A DNA stretch of 64,000 nt from Bacteroidia bacterium. Lineage in GTDB: Bacteria > Bacteroidota > Bacteroidia > 2-12-FULL-35-15. This document shows, one piece after another, positions 40,492-62,500 of the stretch. The translations under genes and the position numbers were made by a program. How positions within the stretch are numbered: the stretch's first letter is position 1; every line of letters begins with the position of its first letter. The notes beneath the pieces are model-generated. The model had not been told where the DNA came from and ran no database searches. It saw nothing but the letters and a program-made list of their open reading frames with translations. Where the stretch lies: contig JAGVJJ010000004.1 in NCBI GenBank assembly GCA_020051175.1, forward strand, positions 43,558 through 107,557, written 5' to 3'.

Positions 40492-41118
40492 TTATTCCCC
40501 TTTTTTCCTTTTTTCTTTCAGGTAAGTGCTTATTAGCGGTATTAACGTGATGATTACCAGTCCGATAACGATATAGCCTACATTTTTTTGCACCCATTCA
40601 TACGTGCCAAGGTAATAACCGATGCTTGCAAGCAAACCAATCCAGGCTATAGCCCCGGCAATATTGTAAAGCATGAATTTTTTGAAATCCACACGAATCA
40701 CCCCTGCCAATATGGGGGCAAAAGTGCGGATAATGGGTAAAAAGCGCCCTATTATTAAAGTTTTGCCACCATTGTCTTTATAGAACTTTTCAGTAACAAT
40801 CAGGTACTGTTTTTTAAAAATCAGGGAGTCTTTGCGATGGAACAGTGGAGGGCCAACTTTGTGGCCGAACCAGTAACCGGCTATATTGCCTAAAATGGCT
40901 GCCAGTGAAAGGAGCAGGATCAAAACAAAAATATTTACATCAAGCACTTCCGGTTTGGAAACACAAATAAGGCCCGAAATGAATATGAGTGAATCACCAG
41001 GTAAAAAGAAGCCGATAAGCAGTCCGGTTTCGGCAAACACAACAAACAACAACAGGGCCAGTCCACCATACTGTATGATAGATTGCGGGTCCGTAAGCTG
41101 TTTTAAGAAATCCAGCAT
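40492..41118 (-). CDS. DedA-family membrane protein
   Basis: 208 aa, with AETGLLIGFFLPGDSLIF and IIGRFLPIIRTFAPILAG, typical of DedA/SNARE-associated proteins. Confidence 0.85.
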   Translation of the reverse strand: MLDFLKQLTDPQSIIQYGGLALLLFVVFAETGLLIGFFLPGDSLIFISGLICVSKPEVLDVNIFVLILLLSLAAILGNIAGYWFGHKVGPPLFHRKDSLIFKKQYLIVTEKFYKDNGGKTLIIGRFLPIIRTFAPILAGVIRVDFKKFMLYNIAGAIAWIGLLASIGYYLGTYEWVQKNVGYIVIGLVIITLIPLISTYLKEKRKKGE

Positions 41119-41185
41119 AGTTAAGTCCGGGTAGGTTTATTAAAGTTGCGTATAAATTCACATACCAGCCCACCCGGGAAAGGTA

Positions 41186-42433
41186 TTAATCTAATTTTAT
41201 TTTGTCGATATCCTGCGGAGTATTATAGGGATGTAATTCTCCTTCCCACTTCGACACCACTGCAGTTGCTACTGCATTTCCAACCACGTTGGTGGCAGAG
41301 CGGCCCATATCCAGAATCTGATCGATGCCCAATAATAATAATAGGCCTTCAACCGGGATATTAAAATGCTGGAGCATACCGGCAATTACAACCAGTGAAG
41401 CTCTTGGTATACCAGCCATTCCTTTGCTGGTTATCAACAATATCAGGAGCATTACTATCTGGTCACTTACACTCATATCAATGCCGTAAGCCTGGGCAAT
41501 AAAAACGGTTGCAAAAGTCATGTACATCATGGAACCATCCAGGTTAAAAGAATACCCTAGCGGTAGTACAAAGCTGATGATGCGGTTCCTGCATCCGAAT
41601 TTTTCAAGCGATTCGATGGTTTTAGGCATAGCAGCCTCCGAGCTGGCAGTGCTGAAAGCCAATAAGATAGGCTCTTTAATATGGTTGAGCAGCCTGAAAA
41701 AGTTGATTTTTAAAAGGAAACAGATAAGAAATAATATAATAAAAATAAAAGAGAGCAAACCGAGGTAAAATGTTCCTATAAGGTATAAATATCCTGTAAG
41801 TACCCCCAGTCCCTGTTTTGCTACAACGGCTGAAATAGCCCCAAATACACCAAAAGGAGCAAAAGCCATTACATAATTGGTTACCTTAAACATAATGTGG
41901 GAAATGGAGTCGAAAAAATCGACAACTATTTTGCCGCCTTTACCGATGGAAGCGGTAGCAATACCAAAAAACAGGGCAAATACAACAATGGGCAGTATTT
42001 CATTTTTTGCCATCACGCCTACAATGCTGTCAGGGATAACGTGTTCAATAAAATTTTTTGCATCAAATCCTTTGCTGGCTTCTATTCCCGTTGCTGCATT
42101 GGCAGGCGGTAGTTCCAGCACCATTTGTTTACCAGGCTCAAAAAAGTTGACAAGCATTAGTCCTAATAATAGCGAAACAATGGCAGCAGCAGTGAAATAC
42201 AATAAGGTTTTGATTCCAATCCGCCCTACCGATTTAAAATCCCCTACTTTGGCAACACCTACAACAAGCACTGAGAATACAAGTGGCGCAATGATCATTT
42301 TAATCAGGCGCATGAATATGTCGCTGAGTATGTGCAGGCCGGGAGCCACATCTTTCCAGAAATACCCTACCAGTATCCCTAAAAACATTCCTAAAAAAAT
42401 CTGGACAATTAAACTGGGCTTTTTAAATTTCAT
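41186..42433 (-). CDS. dicarboxylate/amino acid:cation symporter (DAACS/GltP family)
   Basis: The start is set at MKFKKPSLIVQIFLG (42433). The protein is polytopic, with ...FSTASSEAAMP..., NLDGS and DMGRSATNVVGNA motifs. Confidence 0.85.
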   Translation of the reverse strand: MKFKKPSLIVQIFLGMFLGILVGYFWKDVAPGLHILSDIFMRLIKMIIAPLVFSVLVVGVAKVGDFKSVGRIGIKTLLYFTAAAIVSLLLGLMLVNFFEPGKQMVLELPPANAATGIEASKGFDAKNFIEHVIPDSIVGVMAKNEILPIVVFALFFGIATASIGKGGKIVVDFFDSISHIMFKVTNYVMAFAPFGVFGAISAVVAKQGLGVLTGYLYLIGTFYLGLLSFIFIILFLICFLLKINFFRLLNHIKEPILLAFSTASSEAAMPKTIESLEKFGCRNRIISFVLPLGYSFNLDGSMMYMTFATVFIAQAYGIDMSVSDQIVMLLILLITSKGMAGIPRASLVVIAGMLQHFNIPVEGLLLLLGIDQILDMGRSATNVVGNAVATAVVSKWEGELHPYNTPQDIDKIKLD

Positions 42434-42525
42434 CAGGCTTTTTTGTTTAACAGGAAACAAATATACGGTTTGTATTATAAATGGGGACAAAGCGGTTTAT
42501 TGCCGTGTAAAGTATAACACCAAGG

Positions 42526-42557
42526 CCACAGAGCAAGCACAGATTTACACAGAGAGG
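42526..42557. repeat. half-copy of the CACAGAG-type repeat
   Basis: CCACAGAGCAAGCACAGATTTACACAGAGAGG lies immediately after the ftsX stop. It shares the CACAGAG words with the element at 8435-8515 but has no inverted partner. Confidence 0.35.
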
Positions 42558-42558
42558 G

Positions 42559-43431
42559 TTAATAGTACAGGTCGTCCGACTTCACACGCAGGTATTTGCG
42601 CACAGCAAGTGCCGTGCTGATTCCCGAGATAATAATCCCGATAACTGTAACCATCCCAAAGAGGGTGGCAAGCATGGTTTCGTCCTGAAGCTCTACGAGC
42701 TCAGGAAGCTGCTTTTGCGCAAAATACAGCACTCCAATGAGCATGAGTATGGCAATAACAGCACCATAAATACCATGTTTAATGCCTTTCAGCACAAAAG
42801 GCCAGCTTACAAAACTCTGTGTGGCGCCAACAAGTTGCATTGTCCTGATAATGAATCGTTTGCTGTAGATTGAAAGCCTTATGGTATTGTTGATAAGCGC
42901 TATGGCAATTACCATCAGCAGGCTGCTGAAAGCTAAGATTACAAGCCCTATTTTCTGTACGTTCTCATTGATCATGCTTACCAGCGATTTCTGGTAGACC
43001 AGCTCTTTTACCAGCTTGCTGTGCAGTATTTCCTGCTCTATCCATGCAATGCTGTCGGTATTGGCATAAACCGCCTTCAAGTGGACATTAATAGAAGGAA
43101 GCAGGGGGTTGTAGCCCAAAAAAGCAATAAAGTCTTCGCCTAAATCTTCCTGAAGGCGTTTGGCAGCATCTTCCTTATTGATAAATTCTGTTGATTTTAC
43201 ATAATCAGATGCATCCAGCGTTTTTGTAAAGTGTTGAATGTCCACTTCTTTGGCATTGTCGTTCAGGATAATCTGTATGCCAATGTTTTCTTTCAGGTTG
43301 TCGGAAAGCTTGCTGGTGTTGAGTACAATAATTCCTAACAGGCCAAGCATAAACAATACCAACGCCAGGCTAACTACTGTAGTAATTGTAGAGCCTACGA
43401 ATTTGCGTTCTGCTTTTTTCTTTTCTGCCAC
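42559..43431 (-). CDS. ftsX: cell-division ABC-transporter permease-like protein FtsX
   Basis: 290 aa. The layout is an N-terminal TM helix, a ~100-aa extracytoplasmic domain and three C-terminal TM helices, with RTMQLVGAT in between, as in FtsX. Confidence 0.8.
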   Translation of the reverse strand: MAEKKKAERKFVGSTITTVVSLALVLFMLGLLGIIVLNTSKLSDNLKENIGIQIILNDNAKEVDIQHFTKTLDASDYVKSTEFINKEDAAKRLQEDLGEDFIAFLGYNPLLPSINVHLKAVYANTDSIAWIEQEILHSKLVKELVYQKSLVSMINENVQKIGLVILAFSSLLMVIAIALINNTIRLSIYSKRFIIRTMQLVGATQSFVSWPFVLKGIKHGIYGAVIAILMLIGVLYFAQKQLPELVELQDETMLATLFGMVTVIGIIISGISTALAVRKYLRVKSDDLYY

Positions 43432-43540
43432 CTTGTTGGGATTTGTGTGTGCTAAATTAGGGCTAATCCTTTAGCGTAAACAGTAAAATCATTTTTGAAA
43501 TAAACAACTGAACGTTAATAACTCGGAAATGGCTTGGGGG

Positions 43541-43735
43541 ATTGAGTTATTAGGTTATTTGTTATCAGTTATTGGTTAATAGTTATTGGGTTAATAGGTA
43601 AAGGTTAGTAGTTATAGGTTAATAGTATTGGCCGTTAATAGTTATAGGTTAATAGTTATCGGGTTATTAGTGATCTGTTACTAGCTGGGGTTATTGTGTT
43701 GTAGTTATTAACTCATTGGTTCATTGGCAATAGTA
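43541..43735. repeat. block of ~12 degenerate 13-14 bp tandem repeats, consensus GGTTAATAGTTAT (nearly C-free on plus strand)
   Basis: Exact GGTTAATAGTTAT occurs at 43574-43586 and 43647-43659. Degenerate units (GAGTTATTAGGTTAT, TTGTTATCAGTTAT, AGGTTAGTAGTTAT, CGTTAATAGTTAT...) fill the rest. Confidence 0.8.
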
Positions 43736-43759
43736 GTATATAAGGTGTGAGTTACATTC

Positions 43760-43880
43760 AATAGCTAATAACCTGGTAACTCAGTAAACTCTGTAACCCA
43801 ATCCCCTAATAACTAATAACGGATAACTATTAACCCAATAACCCATTACCTATTACCCTAATAACCAATGAACCAATAAA
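43760..43880. repeat. block of the same repeats in inverted orientation (ATAACTATTAACC; nearly G-free on plus strand)
   Basis: Exact ATAACTATTAACC occurs at 43823-43835. CCAATGAACCAAT (43865-43877) is the reverse complement of ATTGGTTCATTGG in the left block. CAATCCCC pairs with GGGGATTG at 43537. Confidence 0.8.
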
Positions 43881-43897
43881 CTAGTCTGACTAATTCG

Positions 43898-43905
43898 TAT
43901 CTTCG
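43898..43905 (+). promoter_or_regulatory. imperfect -7 box TATCTTCG upstream of leuS
   Basis: It has one mismatch to TAnnTTTG and lies 26 nt upstream of the leuS ATG. Confidence 0.25.
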
Positions 43906-43930
43906 CACCTGCTAAAAAAGTTTATAAAAA

Positions 43931-46900
43931 ATGGAATACAATTTCAGAGAAGTAGAAAAAAAATGGCAGGAACACTGGGCCAAGAATAAAACCTATAAAA
44001 CGGAGAACAGCTCTTCCAAACCTAAATATTATGTGCTGGACATGTTCCCGTACCCAAGCGGGGCTGGCTTGCACGTTGGGCATCCGTTGGGATATATTGC
44101 TTCTGATATTTTTGCGCGCTACAAACGCCTGAAAGGTTTTAATGTATTACATCCGATGGGGTATGATTCATTTGGTCTTCCGGCTGAACAATATGCCATT
44201 CAAACCGGCCAGCACCCTGAAATTACTACCAAAACCAATATTGCACGTTACCGTGAACAGCTGGATAAAATAGGCTTTTCATTCGACTGGGACAGGGAAG
44301 TGAGAACCTCCGATCCGAGCTATTACAAATGGACCCAATGGATTTTTATTCAGTTATTCAACTGCTGGTACAATAAAAAAACGAACAAGGCGGAGAAAAT
44401 AGAAACGCTTGTTAAAACTTTTGAAACTACCGGTTTTAAAGGTACCGAAGATGATATTTTAACCGGTGATTTGGAAGTTTACCACGATGGTTTTACCGCT
44501 GAAGAATGGAGCGGTTTTTCAGAAGCTACTAAAGAGCAGGTTCTGCAACAATTCCGACTTGCTTACCTGAGTGATACCATGGTGAACTGGTGTCCGCAAC
44601 TGGGTACCGTGCTTGCCAATGAAGAGGTGAAAGATGGTGTTTCTGAGCGTGGGGGCTATCCGGTGGAACGTAAGCTGATGAAGCAATGGAGCCTGCGTAT
44701 TACGGCTTATGCCGATAGATTACTAAATGATTTGGAAGGTATTGACTGGACGGAAAGTATTAAAGAAGCGCAGCGTAACTGGATAGGGAAGTCGGTAGGA
44801 ACCAGCATCCGTTTTAGCCTCACCCCTGGCCCCTCTCCAAAGGAGAGGGATAACACGCCTGGCTATCAAACAGCAAATAAGGCAATATGGGAACGATTGA
44901 AATCCAATTCGAGAGAAAATAGGAAAAATCAAACAGAAGCAGAAGAGCTTCTTTGGGAGCAAGTGCGAGATAGGAAGCTGGGATATAAAATCAGGAGACA
45001 GCACGCTGTTGATCAATTTATAGCAGATTTTATTTGTTTGGAACAAAAACTAATTATTGAAGTTGACGGTGAAATACATAACTATCAGCAGGAGTATGAC
45101 GAGGGAAGGACTTATCTTTTGGAAGAAATTGGTTATAGAGTAATCAGATTTACAAATAATTCAGTAAAGGAAAATATCAATTGGGTTTGCGATGAAATTG
45201 CAAAGGCGTTACAGTCTCCCCTCTCCTTTGGAGAGGGGGCAGGGGGTGAGGCTTTTGTTGAAGTCTTCACCACCCGACCCGACACTGTTTTCGGAGTGTC
45301 CTTTGTAACATTAGCCCCGGAACATGAACTGGTAGCGAAAATTACAACAGATGCACAAAGAAAAGCAGTAGAAGAATATGTGACATTTGCCAAAAACCGC
45401 AGTGAGCGGGAGCGTATGGCAGATGTGAAAAAAATTACCGGGGTGTTTACCGGTGCTTATGTTGCACATCCGTTCACTGGAAAAAAAGTTCCCGTATGGA
45501 TAGGCGACTATGTGTTGGCCGGTTATGGAACAGGTGCAGTAATGGCAGTTCCTGCGCACGATTCGCGTGACTTTGCTTTTGCAAAGCATTTTGGATTAGA
45601 CATTACTCAGGTTATTCTTCCCCCTTCTCCTTTGGAGAAGGGGCCGGGGGATGAGGCTTATGAAGCTAAAGAAGGGAAATTGGTTAACTCTGATTTTCTG
45701 GACGGATTGGAGGTAAAAGCTGCCATCAAAAAGGCGATTGCCGTAATAGAAGAAAAAGGCTTAGGGAAAGGCAAAACCAATTTCCGTTTGCGTGATGCTA
45801 TTTTTGGGCGTCAGCGCTATTGGGGGGAGCCCATTCCGGTGTATTATAAAGATGGAATTCCTCATGTGTTAAGCGAAAGTGAATTGCCGTTGGTATTGCC
45901 GGAGGTAGATAAATATCTCCCTACTGAAACCGGTGAACCACCATTGGCCCGTGCCAAAGACTGGAAATACAAAGGGGAATATGAATACGAATATTCCACC
46001 ATGCCGGGCTGGGCTGGCTCTTCCTGGTATTTCCTGCGTTATATGGATGCACATAATGACAAAGAGTTTGCTTCGAAAGAGGCAGTAAACTATTGGCAAA
46101 ATGTAGACTTATACATGGGCGGGGCGGAGCATGCTACAGGGCATTTACTGTATGTGCGTTTCTGGACAAAGTTTTTGTACGATTTAGGATTGATTCCTGT
46201 GATCGAACCGGCAAAAAAACTGATTAATCAGGGGATGATACAGGGAAGAAGTAATTTTGTATATCGTTTAGGTTTTGTGGGGCATATTGAGAATGATGGA
46301 AAAGATAATAAAATTTTTGAATCTCTTCCTTCACTATTCGTGTCTAAAAAATACTTTGATAATCAAACAGAATATAACACTGAGATATTTGCAAGACATT
46401 CCAAAATACTCAAGGAGAATAATATTGCGTCTTTACCACCGATTAGGTACCACGTGATTATTCCATTGCATGTTGATGTTAATATGGTGGAAAATGATGT
46501 ATTAAATATAGAAGCTTTTAAAAATTGGAGAGAAGAATATAAGAACGCTGAATTTCTTTTGGAGGACGGCAAATACATCTGTGGCAGCGAAGTAGAAAAA
46601 ATGTCCAAATCCAAATGGAATGTGGTGAGCCCGGATTCTATGGTGGAGCAATACGGTGCAGATTGTTTGCGCCTGTATGAAATGTTTTTAGGGCCTCTGG
46701 AGCTTTCCAAACCTTGGAACACCAATGGCATTACAGGTGTTTCTAATTTTATGCGTAAGCTGTGGCGATTGTATCATACCACAGACTGGAACAACACCCC
46801 TCTCCTTTGGAGAGGGGCAAGGGGTGAGGCTATCAGCAATGAACCAGCTACAAAGGCCGAGCTAAAAACCCTGCACAAAACCATAAAAAAAATCACAGAA

Positions 46901-47314
46901 GATATTGATCGTTTTTCATTCAACACTTCCGTAAGTAATTTTATGATTTGTGTGAATGAGCTAACGGAGCAGAAATGTAACAAACGTGAGATACTGGAGC
47001 CTCTGGCAATCATTATTGCGCCTTATGCACCGCACATTGCAGAAGAGCTGTGGAGCAAGTTAGGGCATAGAGAAAGCATCACGTATGCTGTTTTCCCTGA
47101 ATGCAAAGAAGAATACCTTGTAGAAAGCTCCTTCAATTACCCTGTTTCGTTCAATGGAAAAACCCGCTTTTTTCAGGAATACGACCGCTCTTTATCCAAA
47201 GAAGAAATAGAAAAAGAAATCATGACCCTGGAGCAAACCCAGAAATATCTTGAGGGAAAAACTCCTAAAAAAGTGATTGTGGTGCCTAATAAGATTGTAA
47301 ATATTGTGATATAG
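43931..47314 (+). CDS. leuS: leucine--tRNA ligase carrying three in-frame repeat-element insertions
   Basis: The HIGH motif ([10 protein letters not shown]), NWIGKS, the editing-domain [24 protein letters not shown] and the C-terminal anticodon-binding region are all present in a single 1127-aa ORF. Confidence 0.95.
44818..45251 (+). mobile_element. TIR-bounded ~434 bp module encoding a DUF559 (Vsr-like) endonuclease domain, in frame within leuS
   Basis: The left end CCTCACCCCTGGCCCCTCTCCAAAGGAGAGGG (44818-44849) is the near-exact reverse complement of the right end CCCCTCTCCTTTGGAGAGGGGGCAGGGGGTGAGG (45218-45251). The interior translates to [82 protein letters not shown], the DUF559 pattern. 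Confidence 0.6.
45620..45657 (+). repeat. solo copy of the palindromic repeat, in frame in leuS editing domain
   Basis: CCCCCTTCTCCTTTGGAGAAGGGGCCGGGGGATGAGGC is translated as [13 protein letters not shown]. Confidence 0.85.
46797..46830 (+). repeat. solo copy of the palindromic repeat, in frame in leuS C-terminal domain
   Basis: CCCCTCTCCTTTGGAGAGGGGCAAGGGGTGAGGC is translated as (T)[11 protein letters not shown]. Confidence 0.85.
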
Positions 47315-47321
47315 TAGTTTT

Positions 47322-47428
47322 TTAACCGTCATTGCGGGCGGAGCGAAGCAATCTCATACCAGCATGAGATTGCTTCTCCGAAGGAATCTTCAGACATTCG
47401 CTAAAAGCCCCTTCGTAATGACGGTTAA
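47322..47428. repeat. nested palindromic REP-like element downstream of leuS; probable terminator
   Basis: The outer arms are TTAACCGTCATTGCG (47322-47336) and CGTAATGACGGTTAA (47414-47428). The inner 13-bp perfect stem is GAAGCAATCTCAT (47345-47357) paired with ATGAGATTGCTTC (47364-47376). Confidence 0.7.
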
Positions 47429-47538
47429 AATCCCTTTCCATAACGGCTTTCAATCCCATTTTAAGCCCCTGTTTTCCCAAAACCTTAAGAAACCGTTATT
47501 AAATACCCCTATTTCAAGGAAATACCAATAAAAATGAC

Positions 47539-47546
47539 TACTTTTG
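47539..47546 (+). promoter_or_regulatory. Bacteroidota-type -7 box TACTTTTG upstream of typA
   Basis: An exact TAnnTTTG match ~65 nt upstream of the typA ATG. This is a motif match only. Confidence 0.3.
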
Positions 47547-47611
47547 CACCCGCTTTGCGCAGGGATGTGCCCTTTTTGTGAAGAAAAAACATTTTTATTT
47601 TCAAATTTTAA

Positions 47612-49420
47612 ATGCAAAACATCAGAAACATTGCCATTATTGCTCACGTTGACCATGGCAAAACCACGTTGGTAGACAAAATTTTACATACCGGGAAACT
47701 GTTCCGTGAAAACGAAACATCAGGAGAGTTGATCCTTGATAACAATGACCTGGAGCGCGAACGCGGGATTACCATTCTTGCCAAAAACGTTTCTGTACGT
47801 TACAAAGGCACTAAAATCAATATCATTGATACTCCGGGACACAGTGACTTTGGAGGTGAGGTAGAGCGTGTATTGAACATGGCGGATGGTGTTGTTCTGT
47901 TGGTAGATGCATTTGAAGGTCCAATGCCTCAAACGCGTTTCGTTACTCAGAAAGCGCTTGCTCAGGGCAAAACCGTTATTCTGATTATTAATAAAGTAGA
48001 TAAACCAAACTGCCGTCCGGATGAGGTGCACGACCAGGTATTTGACCTGTTCTTTAACCTGGATGCTACTGAGGAGCAATTGAACTTCAGAACGGTGTAT
48101 GGTTCATCAAAACAAGGCTGGATGGGCCCGGACTGGAAAACTCCAACTGCTGATATTACCTATTTATTGGATCAAATCATTGATTTTTTCCCGAATGCTC
48201 CTGCACACGAAGGTACCTTGCAAATGCAGATTACCTCGCTTGATTATTCATCTTTCGTTGGTCGTATTGCCGTAGGCCGTGTATTAAGAGGTTCTATCAA
48301 AGAAAATATGCCGGTATCGCTTGTAAAGCGTGATGGAAGCGTTGTTAAATCACGTATTAAGGAATTGTTCACATTCGAAGGTTTGGGTAAGCAAAAAGCT
48401 ACCGAAGTACAGGCAGGGGACATTGTTGCCGTAACTGGTATTGATGGATTTGAAATCGGTGATACCATTGCAGATTTTGAAAATCCGGAAGGTCTTACGC
48501 CAATCGCGATTGATGAACCTACAATGAACATGACGTTTACCATCAATAACTCACCGTTTTTTGGTAAAGAAGGTAAATTTGTTACTTCCCGCCACTTGCG
48601 CGACCGTTTGTTCAAAGAGCTGGAAAAAAATCTTGCATTACGCGTAGAAGAAACCAATTCGGCAGATTCCTACCTGGTGTACGGACGTGGTATTCTCCAC
48701 TTGTCGGTATTGATTGAAACCATGAGACGCGAAGGGTATGAGTTGCAAGTTGGTCAGCCTCAGGTAATTATAAAAGAGGTTGACGGGGTGAAATGTGAGC
48801 CGGTTGAGTATTTAACAGTAGATGTTCCAGAGCCAGTATCAGGTAAAGTGATTGAGTACGTTACACAACGTAAAGGAGACTTAAAAGTAATGGAGCCGAA
48901 AGGCGATTTGATTCATATCGAATTTGAAATCCCTTCTCGTGGTATCATCGGTTTACGTAATAATATTTTAACTGCAACTGCTGGTGAAGCTATTATGGCG
49001 CACCGTTTTAAAGCATTTGAGCCATGGAAAGGCAGCATTCCAAGTCGTGGTAATGGTGTTTTAATTTCTGGTGAACAAGGAACGGCTATTGCTTATTCAA
49101 TTGATAAATTGCAGGACAGAGGTAGATTCTTTGTTGAAGCAGGTGACCCAATCTATACCGGTCAGATCATAGGTGAGAACAACCGCCAGGATGATATGGT
49201 GGTAAACATTACCAAAGAAAAGAAGTTGACAAACATGCGTGCATCCGGAAGTGATGAAAAAATGCGTATAGTGCCTAAAATTACCTTCTCCCTGGAGGAA
49301 GCAATGGAATACATCCAGTGGGATGAATATGTTGAAATAACACCGAAATCGATACGTTTACGTAAAGTGTTGCTGGATGAGAACGAGCGTAAGCGCCAGG
49401 AAAAAAAGCTGGTGTATTAA
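47612..49420 (+). CDS. typA: translational GTPase TypA/BipA
   Basis: 602 aa, with [36 protein letters not shown] and an EF-G-like domain order. Confidence 0.95.
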
Positions 49421-49446
49421 TAGTTTATCTGTTTAAATTTGAAAAA

Positions 49447-49477
49447 CCCCAAACTGTTATGTTTGGGGCTTTTTTAT
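49447..49477 (+). terminator. rho-independent terminator (A-run/T-run on both sides, so bidirectional)
   Basis: CCCCAAAC-tgttat-GTTTGGGG is followed by CTTTTTTATT and preceded by GAAAAA. It lies between convergent typA and the collagen-like gene. Confidence 0.85.
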
Positions 49478-49548
49478 TGCTCATTAATGGCGGATTGTAA
49501 CCGCTGTCCGACTTTGATAATTGTTCTCTAAGCCTATAAAAAGTTATT

Positions 49549-62464: not shown

Positions 62465-62500
62465 CCCCTCTCCTTAGGAGAGGGGATGATGGGGTGAGGC
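62465..62500 (+). repeat. intergenic copy of the palindromic repeat found in leuS
   Basis: CCCCTCTCCTTAGGAGAGGGGATGATGGGGTGAGGC fills the 50-nt spacer between the asnS stop (62502) and the meaB-like start (62451). Confidence 0.85.

Follow-up and report, generated by a model that had tools for sequence, protein, structure and literature searches.

The gene leuS of a Bacteroidia bacterium (GTDB lineage 2-12-FULL-35-15), which encodes leucine--tRNA ligase (LeuRS), contains a small nuclease cassette that is bounded by inverted repeats and read in frame as part of the enzyme. We analysed it in a stretch of 64,000 nucleotides (assembly GCA_020051175.1, contig JAGVJJ010000004.1, positions 43,558 to 107,557), hereafter the window, whose own numbering is used below. 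The leuS open reading frame (ORF) is intact (TIGR00396, E 6.6e-275), with the HIGH (HVGH) and KMSKS motifs and the catalytic, editing and anticodon-binding domains all retained. The cassette lies between the invariant LeuRS residues F295 and V445/F446 (V445-F446-T-T-R-P-D-T), at the start of the CP1 editing domain. The features of the gene and of the cassette are as follows.

43931 to 47314, plus strand: leuS (leucine--tRNA ligase), intact 1127-aa ORF
44816 to 45253, plus strand: complete cassette, 438 nt or 146 codons (leuS codons 296-441), in frame
44816 to 44850, plus strand: left inverted repeat, with tail GCCTCACCCC (44817-44826), spacer TGG and hairpin CCCCTCTCC-AAA-GGAGAGGG (44830-44850)
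44894 to 45214, plus strand: DUF559 / EDxHD-type (Vsr-like) nuclease domain, LeuRS residues 322-428
45218 to 45253, plus strand: right inverted repeat, with hairpin CCCCTCTCC-TTT-GGAGAGGGG (45218-45238), a spacer and tail GGGGTGAGGC (45243-45252)

The cassette and its inverted repeats

The phase of the cassette matches that of leuS, and the block contains no stop codon and no in-frame ATG. The original prediction for this locus, made from the sequence alone, had noted the lack of an in-frame Met. In-frame TTG (44897) and GTG codons exist inside the cassette, but since no stop codon follows the DUF559 domain, any internally started product would still be fused to the C-terminal part of LeuRS.

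The same prediction had assigned the insert to the Vsr-like DUF559 family, and profile and structure searches bear this out. The Pfam model DUF559 (PF04480) matches with an E-value of 1.8e-34 over positions 2-109 of 109, and no other domain was recognised in the cassette; the NCBIfam model PRK09767 matches at E 1.9e-22, below its equivalog cut-off. A profile built from 32 relatives and searched against the PDB retrieved 3hrl (NGO0050 of N. gonorrhoeae, E 2.4e-36) and 3r3p, the catalytic domain of I-Bth0305I (E 4.9e-6). The AlphaFold (AF2) model of the insert has a predicted local distance difference test score (pLDDT) of 81.8. In Foldseek it superposes on 3hrl with a template modelling (TM) score of 0.87 and a root-mean-square deviation of 2.2 Å, and on 3r3p with a TM score of 0.74; Vsr itself (1vsr) is also listed, and RAP/FASTK-like proteins are among the fold-search matches. 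Five catalytic-type residues (D71, E82, D84, H88 and D95, insert numbering) are invariant in the 32 relatives. In 3r3p they align with the mutated D196A, with N208 and with D222, and fall within one position of the mutated H213A. The catalytic positions of EDxHD nucleases are D196 of I-Bth0305I (D51 of Vsr), H213 (H69) and D222 (D97), plus a Glu (PMC3239194), and the cassette nuclease has this set.

The inverted repeats around the insert are likewise as predicted. Their inner arms (44823-44849 and 45219-45245) are 27 nt long and 96% complementary, and their outer arms (44816-44833 and 45236-45253) are 18 nt long and 89% complementary, giving terminal inverted repeats of about 34-36 nt around the 146-codon insert. 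Each arm is built of a tail (GCCTCACCCC), a spacer of 3-4 nt and a GC-rich hairpin of the form CCCCTCTCC-WWW-GGAGAGGGG. Counting both strands, the window contains 8 matches to the hairpin motif where 0.00 would be expected, and the hairpins fold as DNA with energies of -9.4 to -10.8 kcal/mol. Judged by its sequence, the cassette is an EDxHD/Vsr-type nuclease that has neither its own start and stop codons nor its own promoter. It is set between two inverted "tail + GC-rich hairpin" units and is read within LeuRS as an internal domain whose frame continues into the host at both ends.

The window contains five hairpin units, four of them in leuS. Besides the two cassette ends, three solo units are found.

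45622 to 45657, plus strand: solo unit 2, hairpin and right-type tail GGGATGAGGC, in frame in a variable loop of leuS (residues about 563-575)
46797 to 46830, plus strand: solo unit 3, hairpin and right-type tail, in frame in leuS (residues about 956-967)
62465 to 62500, plus strand: solo unit 4, intergenic, hairpin and tail

The repeats code for Pro/Ser/Gly-rich peptides. In the full-length LeuRS model, pLDDT falls below 50 at the repeat-encoded residues 299-309 and 430-440 and at the solo residues 569-572 (unit 2) and 951-966 (unit 3), while the nuclease domain scores 75-93. The repeat- and solo-encoded peptides are thus predicted to be disordered and to behave as flexible linkers or loops. 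Such linkers would allow the nuclease and its host enzyme to fold independently, in a surface loop beside invariant LeuRS motifs.

Viewed on the minus strand, solo unit 4 begins right after the asnS stop codon (62502) and stops 13 nt short of a gene for a MeaB-like GTPase. It occupies nearly all of the 50-nt gap between these two genes. Genes for MeaB fusions and for aminoacyl-tRNA synthetases (aaRS) are typical hosts of the full cassette elsewhere.

The cassette does not resemble a known splicing element. No Hint or intein domain was found in it by Pfam search. Read directly, its junctions are F followed by SLTP on the left and GGEA followed by F on the right, and at the right end of related copies GGEA, GGEV or GGED precedes F, I, S or Y. 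Splicing residues (a C-terminal His-Asn followed by Cys, Ser or Thr) are therefore missing, and we rejected an intein, in line with the original prediction. A group I or group II intron was rejected as well, since the frame is continuous on both sides and an Rfam search of 43500-47500 returned no intron at E up to 1; its sole match was a chance hit to a long non-coding RNA.

Turnover and divergence in related leuS alleles

To place the cassette among its relatives, the 120 closest LeuRS proteins (64-100% identity) were compared; an exact look-up of the window LeuRS protein gave no match. DUF559 is carried by 45 of them, in 42 cases at the loop occupied in the window (site A). Four proteins of the same set have a DUF559 at another loop (site B), which lies near window residue 685. 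One of the four, P0169 (1256 aa), has two cassettes, at sites A and B, and a representative protein of 377 aa (P0241) contains three DUF559 stretches. Solo unit 2 was considered as a remnant of site B and rejected, as site B maps to residue about 685 rather than 563. When the cassettes of relatives were mapped onto the window, no full cassette was seen at either of its in-gene solo sites.

Cassette-free alleles have a loop of 8-9 residues at site A. Among them is L082, a relative with the same gene order (ftsX-leuS-typA), whose site A has neither a cassette nor a repeat remnant; its flanking leuS sequence is 86-89% identical to the window at the nucleotide level, and 45886-48424 is 100% identical. 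In another relative, L081, the cassette is 99.3% identical to that of the window. Other alleles carry decay products at site A. Compared with L084, L083 has lost 351 bp in frame from inside the cassette, so that the nuclease is gone and both repeats remain, L085 has a collapsed tail-hairpin-tail palindrome, L086 has a single hairpin with its tail (half a unit), and further alleles have degenerate repeat traces. These alleles show that the cassette is subject to turnover, its decay leaving internally deleted forms, collapsed palindromes or lone hairpin units. The three solo units of the window behave as remnants of such cassettes. Unit 2 is shared with the relative L001, and L082 has an unrelated loop there; the sequence of unit 3 is identical in L081 and L082.

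The window leuS is itself mosaic, matching L081 at about 100% identity over 44531-45885 and L082 at 100% from 45886 onwards. Over 40800-49480, the window, L081 and L082 form alternating blocks that are 100% identical between different pairs, which indicates either frequent homologous recombination in the population or chimeric metagenome assembly. As the whole region is mosaic and the assemblies are metagenomic, the pattern in leuS is compatible with homing and does not prove it, and we did not accept it as specific proof. Within leuS, a low-GC (about 0.31) hypervariable segment at 46180-46570 (residues about 750-880) lies between GMIQG and KMSKS. It is 100% identical in the window and L082, but L081 reaches only 54-77% identity here against 94-100% in the flanks, as if an insertion domain had been swapped between alleles. 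Upstream, the ftsX-leuS intergenic region contains two degenerate short-repeat arrays (43541-43671 and 43806-43879), one of the GTTATTGGTTAATA type and one of the complementary type TAACCCAATAAC. Jointly they form a large imperfect inverted arrangement with a GC skew of +0.6 and then -0.28, and the region differs in L082.

L001, whose cassette at the same site is 74% identical, served as the reference for divergence. The ratio of nonsynonymous to synonymous differences per site (pN/pS) is 0.23 for the nuclease core, with pS 0.72 (saturated), and 0.22 for LeuRS, with pS 0.705. The nuclease core is thus under purifying selection as strong as that on LeuRS. Having diverged from L001 as much as its host, the cassette is an old resident at this locus. 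In the repeat codons pS is only 0.054 (left) and 0.094 (right), and pN/pS is 1 or more, so the repeats are constrained as DNA or RNA and not as peptide.

Across 70 LeuRS proteins with a cassette at site A, host and insert identities are weakly coupled (Spearman 0.27). In the extreme pairs, hosts that are 85-86% identical carry inserts that are 43-44% identical. In a neighbour-joining tree, which rests on about 120 residues and has unreliable deep nodes, the site-A cassettes have cassettes of site B and of other hosts nested among them. Weak coupling and the interleaved tree together indicate repeated invasion or replacement at the same site, with movement between sites.

The original prediction had named an ancient LeuRS domain, inherited vertically in the whole clade, as the finding that would speak against it. 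Part of this picture holds, for many lineages have the site filled and, relative to L001, cassette and LeuRS have diverged together; the patchy presence and turnover of the cassette do not fit. Occupancy in many lineages and co-divergence with LeuRS make it a long-term, intein-like resident with turnover rather than a recent arrival. A related possibility is a domesticated accessory domain, in which the nuclease fold now serves LeuRS, for example in nucleic-acid binding or regulation, is inherited vertically in the clade and keeps its repeats as relics. The pN/pS of the core equal to that of the host, the co-divergence with LeuRS, the occupancy of the site in 42 of the 120 nearest LeuRS and the relation of the fold to RNA-binding RAP/FASTK domains would all agree with it. 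Against it, the cassette is absent from most close LeuRS, including the syntenic relative, it has been deleted in frame repeatedly, and about 15 unrelated enzyme families contain the same cassette. A role of the protein would leave the conservation of the repeats at the DNA level unexplained, and the catalytic residues are kept and host and insert divergence are weakly coupled. We consider domestication quite improbable.

Host genes and taxa

To survey the cassette outside leuS, reference genomes (one per species) were scanned, which gave at least 584 relatives, with the best match at 74%; the best 80 were examined for context. In 78 of these 80, which are the relatives most similar to the query, DUF559 lies in frame inside a stop-to-stop ORF of 387-1491 aa. 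By Pfam, the host proteins fall into about 15 other families besides LeuRS. The aaRS hosts are LeuRS (sites A and B), IleRS and ValRS. MetH is a host with four different cassette positions, and the MeaB-methylmalonyl-CoA-mutase fusion one with two. Further hosts are RecG, RecJ, Lhr, UDP-GlcNAc 2-epimerase and TruB, together with Type ISP and Type I restriction-modification enzymes and a DNA methylase. The best candidate for a "free-standing" DUF559 protein, P0001 of Sphingobacteriales JAD_PAG50586_3, starts with MVSFSLIPNPSPKEKG and ends with the right-repeat peptide, and so corresponds exactly to a site-A cassette of LeuRS; rather than an independent gene, it is probably a leuS that is frameshifted or was mis-called.

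The relatives come from many orders of Bacteroidota, including cultured Pedobacter, Mucilaginibacter, Flavobacterium, Aequorivita and Polaribacter, and beyond this phylum from Ignavibacteria, Anaerolineae (Chloroflexota), Leptospirales and Patescibacteria. In two Patescibacteria (Paceibacterota), LeuRS carries the cassette at the Bacteroidota site A (L022:4229-6874 and L059:5254-7920), which suggests cross-phylum transfer to a homologous site, or mis-binning. An exhaustive search of representatives at 50% identity gave 21,420 clusters at E up to 1e-3, and about 65 of the best 150 representative clusters are longer than 250 aa. Phages, plasmids and viral contigs were considered as vectors and rejected, since only distant relatives (<50% identity) were found on them, mostly free-standing. 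One distant match on a Sphingomonas plasmid (H18, NZ_CP155753.1, 112517-112933) overlaps both a DUF559-protein and a sufB annotation and may be another nested or adjacent case, in Alphaproteobacteria.

The cassette architecture is present in the cultured isolates Pedobacter miscanthi DE_0302 and Aequorivita todarodis KCTC 62141 (both at LeuRS site A), Flavobacterium difficile KDG-16 (in RecG) and Mucilaginibacter hurinus. These isolates bear on the possibility of an artefact, in which either the assembly is wrong or this leuS is dead and another copy does its work. In favour of an artefact, the sequences of the window and its relatives come from metagenome assemblies and show mosaic identity, and the count of leuS copies, which is one, with no DUF559 domain elsewhere, refers to the 64-kb window. 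The same architecture nevertheless recurs in dozens of independent assemblies as well as in the isolates, the 1127-aa ORF is intact with all its motifs, and LeuRS itself is under purifying selection. An artefact or pseudogene is scarcely credible.

The repeats travel with the nuclease. In the relatives, DUF559 is flanked by a like unit of tail, spacer and pyrimidine/purine hairpin, and hairpins are detectable on both sides in 48 of the 80 loci. Stem sequences vary between elements and keep their self-complementarity, with 16 inner stem types among 98 units that had been selected for being hairpins. Even within one element the two hairpins differ in 18 of 37 cases. A further 37 solos, in both orientations, were found in related host genes, and some of them form close left-right pairs without a nuclease. 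Hairpin density is 0.66 per kb in host ORFs and 0.018 per kb in flanking DNA. The original prediction had taken the solo palindromes for non-autonomous remnants of an autonomous element. The decay series supports remnants; their implied dispersal is not seen, since the units are clustered in host genes and not spread through the genome. That the cassette is the autonomous form is something we infer.

The hairpins at both boundaries raise the possibility that the insert is removed before the mature enzyme forms, either by an unrecognised protein splicing reaction or by excision from RNA at the twin hairpins, in which the nuclease would cut both hairpin loops and a ligase such as RtcB would rejoin the ends, in the manner of Ire1/HAC1 or of archaeal splicing. 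RNA-acting relatives in the fold family (RAP/FASTK-like) and an intein-like host spectrum would fit. Yet neither a Hint domain nor the His-Asn and Cys/Ser/Thr residues of a C-terminal splice junction are present, and no Rfam intron was found. The frame continues downstream of the cassette in 78 of 80 copies, something that excision would make unnecessary, equivalent loop positions lie 388 nt apart, which is not a multiple of 3, and remnants persist in frame as translated loops. We therefore regard excision as very unlikely.

Another possible explanation is a true transposon, with DUF559 acting on hairpin ends as a transposase or excisase, cutting at the inverted repeats and moving the cassette to new sites. 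The solos and paired repeats would then perhaps be MITEs (miniature inverted-repeat transposable elements), and selection would leave the in-frame copies. The terminal inverted repeats are conserved at the nucleotide level, as expected of a MITE or an insertion sequence (IS), many different sites and hosts are occupied, nuclease-less paired repeats and single units occur in both orientations, and cassettes of different hosts interleave in the tree. However, no target-site duplication was found, as no consistent direct repeat flanks the more than 20 well-delimited copies. The T-runs at the cassette ends, in which the original prediction had seen a possible target duplication, are real, but the left one is a conserved LeuRS Phe codon and related copies show no duplication, so this claim was dropped. 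The cassette encodes DUF559 only and no transposase of a known class (DDE, HuH, serine or tyrosine), and we know of no strand-transfer activity in Vsr-type nucleases of roughly 110 residues. Copies are nearly absent from intergenic DNA, unlike those of MITEs and IS elements, and the re-use of the same loop across phyla is typical of homing. A transposon thus appears unlikely.

A model for the spread of the cassette and its relation to known elements

We propose that the cassette is a selfish nuclease which is inserted in frame, translated as part of its host protein and spread by homing or by repeat-guided gene conversion, a reading that we consider probable. The original prediction of a selfish element is supported by the patchy presence of the cassette, the empty site in L082, the decay products, the occurrence in about 15 other host families and the poor coupling of host and insert. 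In this model, the host-fused nuclease would cut alleles that are free of the cassette or bear a remnant. Its target would be the site's conserved coding sequence or else the hairpin or palindrome itself. Repair of the break from a cassette-bearing copy would amount to homing. The conserved repeats may serve as portable homology arms, by which a cassette from one locus could replace a remnant at another, and deletion or recombination between the two hairpins would yield the palindromes. Only in-frame, sense copies in tolerated loops would be both expressed and viable, and this would explain why 78 of 80 copies are embedded.

Several points weigh against this model. No close pair of filled and empty alleles with an otherwise identical site was observed, and as the loop sequence differs in the "empty" alleles, the exact insertion boundaries and the target are undefined. 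The mosaic identity spans the whole ftsX-leuS-typA region and is not specific to the cassette. Divergence of the cassette between the window and L001 equals that of LeuRS, which implies mostly vertical inheritance at this locus. The count of one leuS copy refers to the 64-kb window. The proportion of embedded copies comes from the relatives most similar to the query, and among the more distant DUF559 proteins, those of plasmids and viral contigs, most are free-standing; the tree has the limits given above. Cutting, target and transfer are deduced throughout from sequence comparison.

Among known systems, the EDxHD (Vsr-like) homing endonucleases, including I-Bth0305I, are the closest in their enzyme (Taylor et al. 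2011, PMC3239194; Dassa et al. 2009, PMC2677866). They share with the cassette a homologous catalytic domain with conserved Asp/His/Asp, a preference for conserved sites of essential or DNA-metabolism genes and a patchy distribution. Known members reside in group I introns, in (split) inteins or in free-standing ORFs and have N-terminal NUMOD or helix-turn-helix DNA-binding modules. The cassette, in contrast, is in none of these contexts and lacks start and stop codons of its own; it has no splicing element, carries a short helical N-terminal extension and is flanked by hairpin-bearing inverted repeats.

Inteins with homing endonucleases resemble the cassette in lying in frame beside invariant motifs of essential enzymes (aaRS, helicases and B12 enzymes), in their long vertical residence with sporadic loss and re-invasion, and in expressing the nuclease within the host polypeptide. 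The cassette differs in having no Hint fold or splicing junctions and in its DNA inverted repeats, and evidently it would stay in the mature protein on linkers that are predicted to be disordered.

The solos and paired-repeat derivatives recall the Rickettsia palindromic elements (RPE), which are reportedly short palindromic DNA segments inserted in frame in protein-coding genes and tolerated as surface loops. The two in-gene solos of the window, which lie in frame, and the 37 further ones in related host genes are likewise short palindromes. To our knowledge, no cognate enzyme has been assigned to RPE, which are dispersed in high copy. The cassette family, in comparison, includes a nuclease-bearing parent form and has few copies that are concentrated in the same host genes, rather than high-copy or non-coding ones. 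An analogous architecture is said to occur in the REP/RAYT system of repetitive extragenic palindromes and their associated transposases, with an enzyme gene between two inverted hairpin repeats plus solo and paired hairpins. RAYTs are HuH Y1 transposases, and REPs are extragenic and abundant, whereas the cassette encodes a Vsr-type nuclease (DUF559) and is intragenic. Free-standing DUF559 proteins (the E. coli YcjD type, and NGO0050 of N. gonorrhoeae, 3hrl) belong to the same Pfam family and have the same fold (TM score 0.87), but they are independent small genes of unknown function, while the cassette subfamily is nested in host enzymes and bears repeats.

In the open-access full texts searched, no description of such cassettes was found. 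We judge the chances to be evenly balanced that they form an undescribed class of mobile element, namely a promoterless nuclease without start or stop codon that lives solely as an unspliced internal domain of essential enzymes, and whose inverted repeats double as recognition or recombination sites and as linker code.

On the usual view, homing endonuclease genes depend on a self-splicing intron or an intein if their entry into essential genes is not to be lethal to the host. The cassettes appear to manage without splicing, through tolerance of the loop, linker-coding repeats and borrowed host transcription and translation. If our model is correct, they would represent a third route, beside introns and inteins, by which selfish nucleases enter conserved genes, and they could be the parent element of the Rickettsia-type in-frame palindromic repeats, whose origin has so far been unsettled. 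Compact nucleases specific for hairpins or palindromes, and natural permissive insertion sites in enzymes, would also become available. The model would further give the large DUF559 family a concrete biological role, and it would account for many of the oversized aaRS, MetH, RecG and similar annotations in Bacteroidota.

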